Origin: Escherichia coli
Lineage (GTDB): Bacteria > Pseudomonadota > Gammaproteobacteria > Enterobacterales > Enterobacteriaceae
Assembly (NCBI RefSeq): GCF_045037415.1
Contig: NZ_CP173438.1
Direction: 5' to 3' (one strand)
DNA: 64,000 nucleotides
Made by a program: the position numbers. Positions within the stretch are counted from its first letter, which is position 1; each line of letters starts with the position of its first letter. Below, in pieces: positions 21,001 through 24,000 of the stretch.

Positions 21001-24000
21001 ACCCATCACCAGAGGACGTACGGACGGGTCGAGCAAATTACCGAGCGTGAAAATCAGGATGATCCCAAGACCCACATACGCGCCCGCCATGGCGGAGCTG
21101 ACCCAAAAGCCGAGCGGGTTATTTGCCGACAGGCGTGCAATGCGCGCAGCGTTAGCCGCACACTTAGTAATAGTGTCTGTAAACATTTGATTATCCTTTA
21201 AAAAATAAAAACAAAAAATAAAACAAAAAGTTTAAAAAATGTCCTGCAATATACCGAAGGTTATTACAGGACCATGCAAAAAGGGGGAGGCATTGCGCCT
21301 CCCGTTAAAATATTAACCGCGCAGCTGCACCACGCCGTCTTTCACTCGCGCGTCGTAATGCTTGACGGAAAACTGTTCGTCTTCCATGCACAAGCCGTCG
21401 CTTAAGCGAAAACGCTGCTTTTTCAGCGGGCTGGCGACCCACAGCTCGCCCTGGTGTTCCGCAATCAGCCCGCGTGACAGCACGCTGGACTCGAAGAACG
21501 GATCGATGTTGCTGATCGCAAACACCTGGTCGCTGTGATACGGGCGGAAAATTGCTACTTGTTCGTCACCTAACAGCGCGCAGACGCCGGTTTCAGGCAG
21601 GATGTCATCGATTTTGCAGATGTCTTTCCACTGGCTCATGCGTTGTCCTCCACCAGAGTTACCGGGATACGTTCATACGGCGTTGCCGGACGGTGCTGTT
21701 CGCGCTCTGGCACCATCTGCACGTTCGGGTCACGCTTGTCGCTGTTGATGAAGTGTTTGAAGCGAGTCTGCGCAGACGGGGTATTGACCGTTTCAGTCCA
21801 CTCACACACTACCGCTTCACGCAGGCGCGCCATCTCTTCTTCCAGATGTGCGTTCAGCCCCAGTTTGTCGTCAATGATCACCGCTTTCAGGTAATCGATG
21901 CCACCTTCGAGGTTTTCTAACCACGGCGCGGTACGCGTCAGTTTGTCGGCAGTACGGATGTAGAACATCATGAAGCGGTCAAGATATTTAATCAGCGTTT
22001 CGCGATCGATATCCGCTGCCAGCAGATCCGCATGACGCGGTTTCATGCCGCCGTTACCGCAAACATACAGGTTCCAGCCTTTTTCAGTGGCGATAATACC
22101 CACGTCTTTACCCTGAGCTTCTGAACATTCACGGGTACAGCCGGAGACACCGAACTTCATTTTGTGCGGCGTACGGATGCCTTTGTAGCGATTTTCCAGT
22201 TCCACGCCGAGGCCGACGCTGTCGCCAACGCCATAGCGGCACCAGGTGCTACCCACGCAGGTTTTCGCCATACGCAGTGCTTTCGCATAGGCATGACCGG
22301 TTTCGAAACCTGCTTCAATCAGCTGACGCCAGATCTCCGGCAGATCGTCTTTCTGTGCGCCAAACATCGCCAGGCGCTGGGAGCCGGTGATTTTGGTGTA
22401 GAGATTAAATTCACGCGCGATACGACCCACTGCCATCAGCCCTTCCGGGGTGATTTCACCACCCGGAGAACGCGGGATCACCGAGTAGGTGCCGTCTTTT
22501 TGGATGTTAGCGAGGAAGTTGTCGTTAGAATCCTGCAGCGGAGTATGTTCCGGCTTCAGAATGTATTCGTTCCAGCAGGAGGCCAGCAGCGAACCGACGG
22601 TCGGTTTACAAACTTCACAACCGTAACCTTTGCCGTGTTTCGCCAGCAGTTCTTCGAAGGTTTTAATGCCTTCAACGCGGATCAAATGGAACAGTTCCTG
22701 ACGCGAATAAGCAAAGTGTTCACACAGGTTGTTGTTAACTTCGATACCCTGTTTCGCCAGTTCCGCGTTCAGTACCTGAGTGACCAGCGGAATACAACCG
22801 CCGCAGCCCGTACCGGCTTTGGTTTCGGCTTTCAGCGCCGCAACGGTGTGGCAGCCTTTGTTGATAGCAGCAATCAGGTCGCCTTTGGTGACGTCGAAGC
22901 AGGAGCAGATTTGCGCGCTGTCCGGCAGTTTATCAACACCGATAGACGGCTTACCGCTACCCGAGTGCGCCGGCAGAATCAGAGAATCCGGGTTTTCCGG
23001 CAGTTCGATAGCGTTCAGCACCAGTTGCAGCAGGTTGCCGTAGTCGCTGGTATCGCCCACCAGTACCGCACCGAGCAGGGTTTTGTTGTCTTCGCTGACA
23101 ATCAGGCGTTTGTAGATCTCTTTGCTTTCGTCGAGGTAAACGTAGCTACGTGCGCCAGGCGTGCGACCGTGCGCATCACCAATACCGCCTACGTCTACGC
23201 CCAGCAGTTTCAGCTTGGCGCTAAGGTCTGCACCTTCAAAGGCGTTTTCGCTACCAAGAATATGGTCAACGGCGACCTGCGCCATTTTGTAGCCTGGTGC
23301 TACCAGACCAAATACACGGTTGTTCCAGCTTGCGCATTCACCGATGGCGTAGATATCCGGATCGGAAGTCTGGCAGGAATCATTTATGACGATACCCCCA
23401 CGCGGAGCAACGTCCAGACCACACTGGGTTGCCAGCTTATCGCGCGGACGGATACCGGTAGAGAAGACGATAAAGTCGACTTCCAGTTCGCTGCCGTCGG
23501 CAAAACGCATGGTTTTACGCGCTTCAACACCTTCCTGCACAATCTCAAGAGTGTTTTTGCTGGTGTGAACGCGCACGCCCATACTTTCGATTTTGCGACG
23601 CAGCTGCTCGCCGCCCATCTGATCAAGCTGTTCCGCCATCAGCATAGGGGCAAATTCGATAACGTGGGTTTCAATGCCTAAGTTTTTCAGCGCGCCAGCG
23701 GCTTCCAGACCTAACAGGCCGCCACCAACAACGGCACCGCGTTTGCTGCGACGGGCGCAGGATTCAATGGCGTTGAGGTCTTCAATAGTGCGATAGACAA
23801 AGCAGTCCTGAGTATCAGAACCTTTGATTGGCGGGATCCACGGGTAGGAACCGGTCGCCATGATCAGCTTGTCATAAAAAACGGTACGTCCGGCGCTGGA
23901 GTGAATCACCTTCTCCTGACGGTTGATGGTGATAGCGCGTTCGCCGACCAGAACTTTGATGCCGTGTTTCTCGTAGAAGCCTTCGCGCACCAGCGACAGC

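Follow-up and report, generated by a model that had tools for sequence, protein, structure and literature searches.

We analysed a 64,000-nucleotide (nt) stretch of Escherichia coli DNA (NCBI RefSeq assembly GCF_045037415.1, contig NZ_CP173438.1; here the window), in which a terminator-like hairpin stands between nirD and nirC of the nitrite reductase operon. The open reading frames (ORFs) on the minus strand include nirB (24179..21636), nirD (21639..21313), nirC (21186..20380) and cysG (20361..18988); NirB, NirD, NirC and CysG are each matched by their own NCBIfam equivalog, NirD by NF007066 at 211.8 bits, and the gene order nirBDC-cysG is confirmed in the window. The window is E. coli chromosome, and a 201-nt stretch around the hairpin is matched in 5424 of 5426 complete E. 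coli genomes. The nirD stop codon (TAA, 21315..21313, minus strand; placed by the ORF list, the NF007066 match and the sequence itself) is followed by a spacer of 126 nt (21312..21187) that ends at the nirC ATG (21186..21184), and for which the K-12 RefSeq annotation gives no feature and no non-coding RNA (ncRNA).

The spacer opens with an AU-rich linker of 9 nt, UAUUUUAAC (21304..21312, minus strand), and in all related loci this distance from stop codon to hairpin stays within 5–10 nt. Next comes the element itself, which we call hairpin 1 (21303..21285, minus strand) and which is defined by sequence, folding and covariation: arms GGGAGGC and GCCUCCC form a 7-bp stem with six G-C pairs around the loop GCAAU, and the tail CCTTTTTGC (21284..21276, minus strand) reads CC-UUUUU-GC, with its five U residues at 21282..21278. 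The folding energy of a 42-nt slice is −14.7 kcal/mol, and the pair probabilities lie at 0.90–0.99 in contexts of 50–600 nt upstream and 0–135 nt downstream; the local z-score of the slice is just −2.0, a modest value because shuffles of a short GC-rich slice fold too. A preliminary description of this DNA, made from the sequence alone, had placed a GGGAGGC/GCCTCCC stem at 21285-21303 right after the nirD stop and an A/T-rich stretch before nirC; its sequence statements all hold (direct counting gives 63% T and 89% A+T for 21240..21187), and the folding calculation that it called for finds the stem stable, as these energies and probabilities attest. With a strict terminator scan, demanding seven perfect pairs, at least six of them G-C, and at least five T in 8 nt starting 0–2 nt past the stem, we found six strand-specific matches at four loci of the 64-kb window, where dinucleotide shuffles lead one to expect 0.23. 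Hairpin 1 passes the five-of-eight rule with a UUUUU that starts 2 nt past the stem, behind CC and before GCAUG, and with a low tail score of 1.38. A loose version of the scan found 19 candidates against 9.3 expected, a background too high to count as evidence.

Of 5426 E. coli genomes, 5425 have hairpin 1, and its conservation extends across at least ten enterobacterial genera. Our conservation set consisted of 80 species-level Enterobacterales loci fetched with NirD as probe, 49 with nirC after nirD and 31 without nirC. In the 49 nirC-containing loci the spacer varies from 67 to 402 nt and is hypervariable, unalignable except for two fixed blocks: a G+C-rich hairpin with a T-run, 5–10 nt past the nirD stop, and the nirC ribosome-binding block AAGGAUAAUCAA. 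Across 34 distinct enterobacterial homologues of hairpin 1 the 7-bp stem is 99.6% paired, and three of its seven pairs have changed on both sides (G-C to C-G, A-U to G-C, and C-G to U-A); the alignment holds 19 compensatory cells, a total matched by none of 500 shuffles, and slid registers of the same alignment are paired at 56–67% only. Atlantibacter has an unrelated stem, GGGCGAGG...CCUCGCCC, followed by U5, at the same position.

The hairpin tends to occur together with nirC. Terminator-like hairpins follow nirD in 45 of the 49 nirC-containing loci as against four of the 31 nirC-less ones, in all of which cysG comes directly after nirD; the remaining 27 have no such hairpin (Fisher p = 5e-13, with phylogeny and paralogy uncorrected). 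A T-run of at least four in 8 nt lies directly past the stem in 45 of the 49 nirC-containing loci, and it persists where another sequence has taken the place of the stem. The near-absence of the hairpin from nirC-less operons is consistent with its being there to restrain nirC.

The nirC-less loci have features of their own. In Enterobacter, Kluyvera, Pseudocitrobacter, Trabulsiella and others (loci L029-L034, L036, L038, L040, L043, L044, L046, L048-L051, L053, L055, L057-L060, L070, L076 and L080 of the set), which have nirBD-cysG without hairpin 1, the first ~150 nt past nirD contain another conserved long hairpin, TAACRGCAGGAAAA...CUGCUGUUA, overlapping the extended −10-like sequence TGTTATCCT upstream of cysG; L024 and L028 keep a remnant of the nirC 3′ end. 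Variation in spacer length includes a dispersed repeat of ~110 nt (positions 1895-2010 of L007; also in L010, L011, L014, L016, L035, L056 and L063), borne by the spacers of Salmonella, several Citrobacter, Leclercia and Phytobacter species and found at a median of four places per E. coli genome at ~81% identity, for example beside nudB. We take this repeat to be ERIC/IRU. Other Citrobacter species carry REP-like palindromes in the spacer, downstream of hairpin 1.

An element at this position has been characterised experimentally in Salmonella. Wang, Chao, Matera, Gao and Vogel (2020; Nucleic Acids Res 48:2126; PMC7038943) described an “intra-operonic terminator” after nirD, in an operon for which they detected three messages on northern blots: nirBD at 2.8 kb, nirC-cysG at 2.5 kb and the full-length one at 5.4 kb. 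Deletion of the stem-loop and U-track lowered nirBD and raised nirC-cysG; RNase E is implicated in making nirC-cysG, which fell on inactivation of the enzyme while the full-length mRNA accumulated; the 5′ ends of nirC-cysG map in the U-rich region, and the only nirC 5′ ends seen in Salmonella were processed ones (PMC7038943). The same study reports that repression of nirC by the small RNA (sRNA) NarS, about 30-fold, shrinks to about 5-fold without the terminator element, and suggests that Hfq binds the U-rich region.

The E. coli and Salmonella elements share the operon, the position past the nirD stop, a C followed by a U-run, a U-rich stretch, and a NarS target at the nirC Shine-Dalgarno (SD) sequence. 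The stem GGGAGGC/GCCUCCC is identical in E. coli and in the loci from S. enterica subsp. arizonae/diarizonae (L007 and L026), where the loop is one base apart (GCAAC for GCAAU), and the Salmonella-type stem folds at −14.8 kcal/mol in our calculation against −14.90 as published (PMC7038943). Since position, operon and stem are the same, hairpin 1 is, judged on sequence, plainly orthologous to that characterised terminator, and as a Salmonella element it was already known. The surroundings differ: the E. coli spacer is 125-128 nt long and lacks the ERIC-like insert, whereas Salmonella-type spacers measure 194 nt with the insert in L007 and 81 nt in L026, and the NarS site of the strain studied by Wang et al. 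lies ~200 nt from the U-track (PMC7038943). The U-run has five U in E. coli against six plus seven more in Salmonella, the window has CC where Salmonella has C, and E. coli, unlike Salmonella, has an additional hairpin, hairpin 2, with a run of six U (U6). That second hairpin and the loss of the hairpin in most nirC-less species are new details beyond the published picture. In the Salmonella deletion strain, shifted nirC-cysG 5′ ends map to a ‘TTAATT stop codon region’ (PMC7038943); the E. coli linker at 21304..21312 corresponds to it, and we infer that RNase E may cleave there too.

Transcript data for E. coli K-12 bear on the same boundary. Supplementary file 2 of Adams et al. (2021; PMC7815308) includes a region of Rho termination with its best coordinate at K-12 3497031 (+); mapped through locus L081, it falls at nirC nt 29, near 21158 of the window (approximately 21150..21166, minus strand). 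Read counts for the 800 nt on its upstream and downstream sides are 586 and 24 without treatment and 920 and 149 with bicyclomycin (BCM), giving a Rho score of 3.95 with p 6e-12 (PMC7815308). The drop at the boundary is thus ~24-fold, of which roughly 4-fold is Rho-dependent and 6-fold is left with Rho inhibited; a residual step of this kind would be expected from a Rho-independent terminator, or from differential stability. The Rho region itself is the case for supposing that nirD-nirC polarity is essentially Rho-dependent, arising from a long untranslated spacer and weak translation of nirC, with the hairpin incidental; but the downstream/upstream ratio under BCM is still 0.16 (149/920), the spacer, rich in U and poor in C, does not resemble a rut site, and the covariation of the stem, its fixed position and the Salmonella deletion phenotype point to selection on the hairpin, so that we regard an account by Rho alone as quite improbable.

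We therefore weighed what hairpin 1 does in E. coli. We consider it very probable that, in hairpin 1 and its U-run, E. coli has the orthologue of the intra-operonic intrinsic terminator after nirD, constitutive and leaky, and doubling as a protector of the nirBD 3′ end. Several points weigh against this. The coverage figures are of low resolution (800-nt windows) and reflect mRNA stability too, and the polarity in K-12 is partly Rho-dependent, as its score of 3.95 indicates. No Term-seq 3′ end is called in K-12 3496800-3497099 in LB at OD 0.4, LB at OD 2.0 or M63, all aerobic (PMC7815308, supplementary files 1 and 3); 3′ ends at the U-tract are a defining trait of an intrinsic terminator, yet their absence here is weak evidence because the operon is anaerobically induced and poorly expressed in aerobic cultures. 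The U-run is short (five U) and offset by CC, with the lowest tail score among the variants compared, and may therefore terminate inefficiently. Wang et al. were unable to tell true termination from a protected, processed 3′ end (PMC7038943); the association with nirC is uncorrected for phylogeny or paralogy; and our literature search gave no paper that tests the E. coli element directly, for example by deletion. The preliminary description had proposed 3′-end mapping and coverage as a check on its terminator: K-12 coverage across the junction is far from uniform, falling from 586 to 24, and no 3′ end was called in the aerobic Term-seq.

Intrinsic terminators within operons are a known class that sets differential expression of the genes on either side. 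Wang et al. refer to this class in their discussion (PMC7038943). Hairpin 1 resembles it in its G+C-rich stem and U-run between cistrons, in partial read-through and in the higher expression of the upstream genes; it differs in that the nirD terminator also conditions NarS control of the downstream cistron. A second familiar class, the intercistronic stem-loops of REP/BIME elements (malE-malF, for example), protects upstream mRNA from 3′ exonucleases and has no U-run. Hairpin 1 is like these in being an intercistronic stem-loop with protection of the upstream mRNA, and unlike them in that both it and hairpin 2 are single-copy and it carries a U-run. If it were purely a stabiliser of this kind, nirBD mRNA would arise from RNase E cleavage of the full-length message and exonucleolytic trimming back to the stem. 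The short, CC-offset U-run of the window, the missing Term-seq peak in aerobic K-12 and the REP-like palindromes at the equivalent place in Citrobacter spacers are all compatible with that; an exonuclease barrier, however, needs no T-run, and one is kept past the stem in 45 of 49 nirC-containing loci, Atlantibacter included. The rise of nirC-cysG in the Salmonella deletion is what lost termination would produce, and inhibition of Rho still leaves a 6-fold drop in K-12. We consider stabilisation alone unlikely, if less so than Rho alone. Because the T-run survives replacement of the stem, polymerase release is favoured over protection alone, and we infer that RNA polymerase is actually released at hairpin 1 in E. 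coli, beyond protection of the 3′ end.

Intrinsic termination by hairpin 1 could in principle be switched, and the preliminary description had left open a terminator or an attenuator within nirBDC-cysG. Its terminator half gains support from the Salmonella deletion and from the K-12 drop from 586 to 24 reads; a switch-type attenuator does not, there being no alternative fold and no conserved leader ORF. In such an attenuator a leader ORF starting at the loop AUG, with GGGAGG as its SD, or an alternative fold, would set read-through. The left arm GGGAGG is indeed SD-like, the loop AUG is followed by Pro codons, and a ribosome at the nirD stop, 9 nt off, would abut the stem. Yet Salmonella and most Citrobacter have ACG in place of that AUG, the SD would be locked in the stem (pair probabilities 0.90-0.99), and no competing or anti-terminator fold appeared in any transcript context folded, hairpin 1 dominating the ensemble. 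With neither an anti-terminator fold nor a conserved leader ORF, the element is better described as a constitutive leaky terminator and 3′ stabiliser than as a switch, and we give a regulated attenuator almost no credence. The mini-ORF from the loop AUG, MPPPFCMVL (21264-21294, minus strand), was rejected as a leader peptide: it has nine codons here and 33 in K-12-type sequences, where the frame runs to the nirC SD, and is unconserved outside Escherichia; frame and length differ among E. coli strains because of a C indel. It may correspond to an ORF called ‘nirE’ that is reported to have been proposed once in the nirD-nirC region (Peakall 1990, Harborne 1992).

The C indel is the main variable of the U-tail. 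In the window allele, CC separates hairpin 1 from the U-run, whereas most E. coli, K-12 included, have a single C; the window also has A instead of G at 21311. Of 5427 records, 542 (about 10% of genomes) contain the window's exact 57-mer. T-tail scores are 1.38 for the window, the lowest among hairpin 1 variants, against 2.3 for K-12 and 3.08 for Salmonella, and from the sequence the CC allele is predicted to weaken the U-tail. Two strains depart further. In ET358 (L083, NZ_CP100962.1) hairpin 1 has lost most of its 3′ arm to a 6-nt deletion aligned to 21285-21290, a natural knock-out in one genome among about 5400 that could also be an assembly error. In muskdeer13-4 (L082) the U-rich spacer is expanded by 18 nt, (TTTTTA)3, near 21212, and hairpin 1 contains a G.U pair; the (TTTTTR)n tract resembles a small length-variable repeat.

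Downstream of hairpin 1 lies hairpin 2 (21272..21241, minus strand), overlooked in the preliminary description and defined by folding and sequence as GUCCUGUAAUAACC-UUC-GGUAUAUUGCAGGAC. It is longer than hairpin 1 and is followed by AUUUUUU (through 21234); at −17.5 kcal/mol and z −4.8, none of 200 shuffles is as stable, and in the minimum-free-energy structure of the whole spacer the two hairpins fold independently. Hairpin 2 is Escherichia-specific, absent from the other genera examined; E. albertii-type sequences, although their loop differs, retain its stem, in which 98.4% of cells are paired and one pair shows a compensatory change from G-C to A-U. It may be a second terminator-like stem, or a protective stem at the 5′ end of processed nirC-cysG mRNA. 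More tentatively, the Escherichia spacer could be a two-hairpin module in which hairpin 2 and U6 are functional, as a tandem terminator deepening the step between nirBD and nirC or as a 5′ stabiliser of nirC-cysG, in which indels (C/CC, (TTTTTR)n and that of ET358) tune the nirBD:nirC ratio between lineages, and in which the hairpin was selected specifically to restrain the nitrite importer; we regard this combination as possible and rather doubtful.

The two hairpins might also form an sRNA of ~80 nt, released from the nirD 3′ untranslated region with hairpin 1, hairpin 2 and U6 and acting on trans targets of its own. A weak sroE-like Rfam match spans exactly 21313..21232, and Hfq typically binds terminator hairpins that have a U-tail (Wang et al. 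2020, PMC7038943). The match, however, reaches 18.9 bits where the gathering score is 51, its second helix is broken, hairpin 2 occurs in Escherichia only, K-12 RefSeq has no ncRNA here and no Term-seq 3′ end is called, which together make such an sRNA highly improbable. Membership in sroE (RF00371) itself was rejected: the likeness lies in a similar first hairpin (GGGaaGCG...CGCuuCCC in sroE), a second stem and a U-run, and against it stand the score, five non-canonical pairs in the second helix and the different locus of sroE.

From hairpin 2 to the ribosome-binding site runs an unstructured U-rich spacer (21200..21240, minus strand), A-U6-AAAC-U5-G-U4-A-U6-G-U5-A-U6, which starts with the U6 of hairpin 2; T-rich composition adjoins the hairpin in other genera too. 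By analogy with Salmonella it is likely to be an RNase E entry or Hfq-binding region. Two other roles were tried and rejected: masking of the nirC SD through pairing with the U-rich spacer, where the pairing is not significant (z −1.55), and a repeat element of REP or ERIC type in the spacer or hairpin 2, which occur at a median of one place per genome.

The spacer ends in a target for NarS. The segment before the nirC AUG reads AAAGGAUAAUCAA, and the NarS target proper, AAAGGAUAAUCAAAU (21199..21185, minus strand), identified by complementarity, takes in the nirC SD together with the A and U of the AUG. The E. coli narS gene (b4813) is annotated in K-12, and its seed is a 15-nt perfect complement to 21199..21185, where shuffled NarS sequences reach at most 11 nt; we used this seed-complementarity test since RNAduplex with full-length NarS and the spacer was uninformative, 41 of 300 shuffles pairing equally well. 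The target block is conserved across genera. Pairing with and repression of nirC by NarS, an Hfq-dependent sRNA from the narK 3′ untranslated region, have been shown in Salmonella (Wang et al. 2020, PMC7038943).

How far the hairpin governs cysG is a separate matter. A putative extended −10-like motif, TGGTATGCT (20451..20443, minus strand), found by motif scan within the nirC 3′ end, is a probable internal cysG promoter; its count alone is not significant, it is kept upstream of cysG in several nirC-less species, and an internal cysG promoter inside nirC is stated by Wang et al. (2020, PMC7038943). With a promoter of its own inside nirC, cysG is only partly under the control of hairpin 1. By consensus scan the nirD-nirC spacer contains no promoter for nirC. 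The preliminary description had suggested that the hairpin could tune nirC and cysG relative to nirBD: the Salmonella deletion phenotype and the K-12 coverage drop agree with a lowering of both, which for cysG applies in part only. The operon ends in another terminator-like hairpin, just after the cysG stop (18959..18980, minus strand; nine pairs, tail TTTCGTTTAC, −14.4 kcal/mol, T-score 3.09).

Elsewhere in the window, the other loci found by the strict scan are 41594-41615 and 48073-48090, which qualify on both strands and resemble bidirectional terminators, and 18505-18526 on the minus strand; there were no others. Adams et al. (2021) also list a Rho termination region antisense to nirD, at ~21335 on the plus strand of the window (K-12 3496855, minus strand), with reads of 262/12 untreated and 405/66 with BCM; this implies an antisense transcript that begins within or close to the spacer or the 5′ end of nirC.

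Taken as a leaky terminator, hairpin 1 would work as follows. Transcription from the nirB promoter would pass the nirD stop, whereupon the 7-bp stem would form and part of the polymerases would release at the U-run, leaving a nirBD mRNA whose 3′ stem-loop would also shield it against 3′ exonucleases. Polymerases that read through would cross the U-rich spacer, and in Escherichia hairpin 2 and its U6 as well, into nirC-cysG; RNase E would cut the read-through RNA in the U-rich region to yield nirC-cysG mRNA, which Hfq-dependent NarS would target at the nirC ribosome-binding site. Poor translation of nirC would expose the RNA to Rho and add polarity. The net outcome would be more nirBD than nirC message and a nitrite importer under separate control, with cysG partly buffered by the promoter inside nirC.

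NirC imports toxic nitrite and NirBD detoxifies it, and a leaky terminator between the two keeps the reductase message above that of the importer; in Salmonella it also prepares nirC-cysG mRNA for selective silencing by NarS. Reviews call unexplained why NarS acts on nirC alone and why a distant U-track is needed. The compact E. coli spacer, in which the U-rich tract abuts the NarS site, offers a simpler system in which to test this, together with the natural variants (ET358, the CC allele and the T-tract expansion). Orthology and purifying selection introduce no new principle here; they extend the Salmonella model to E. coli and other enterobacteria.

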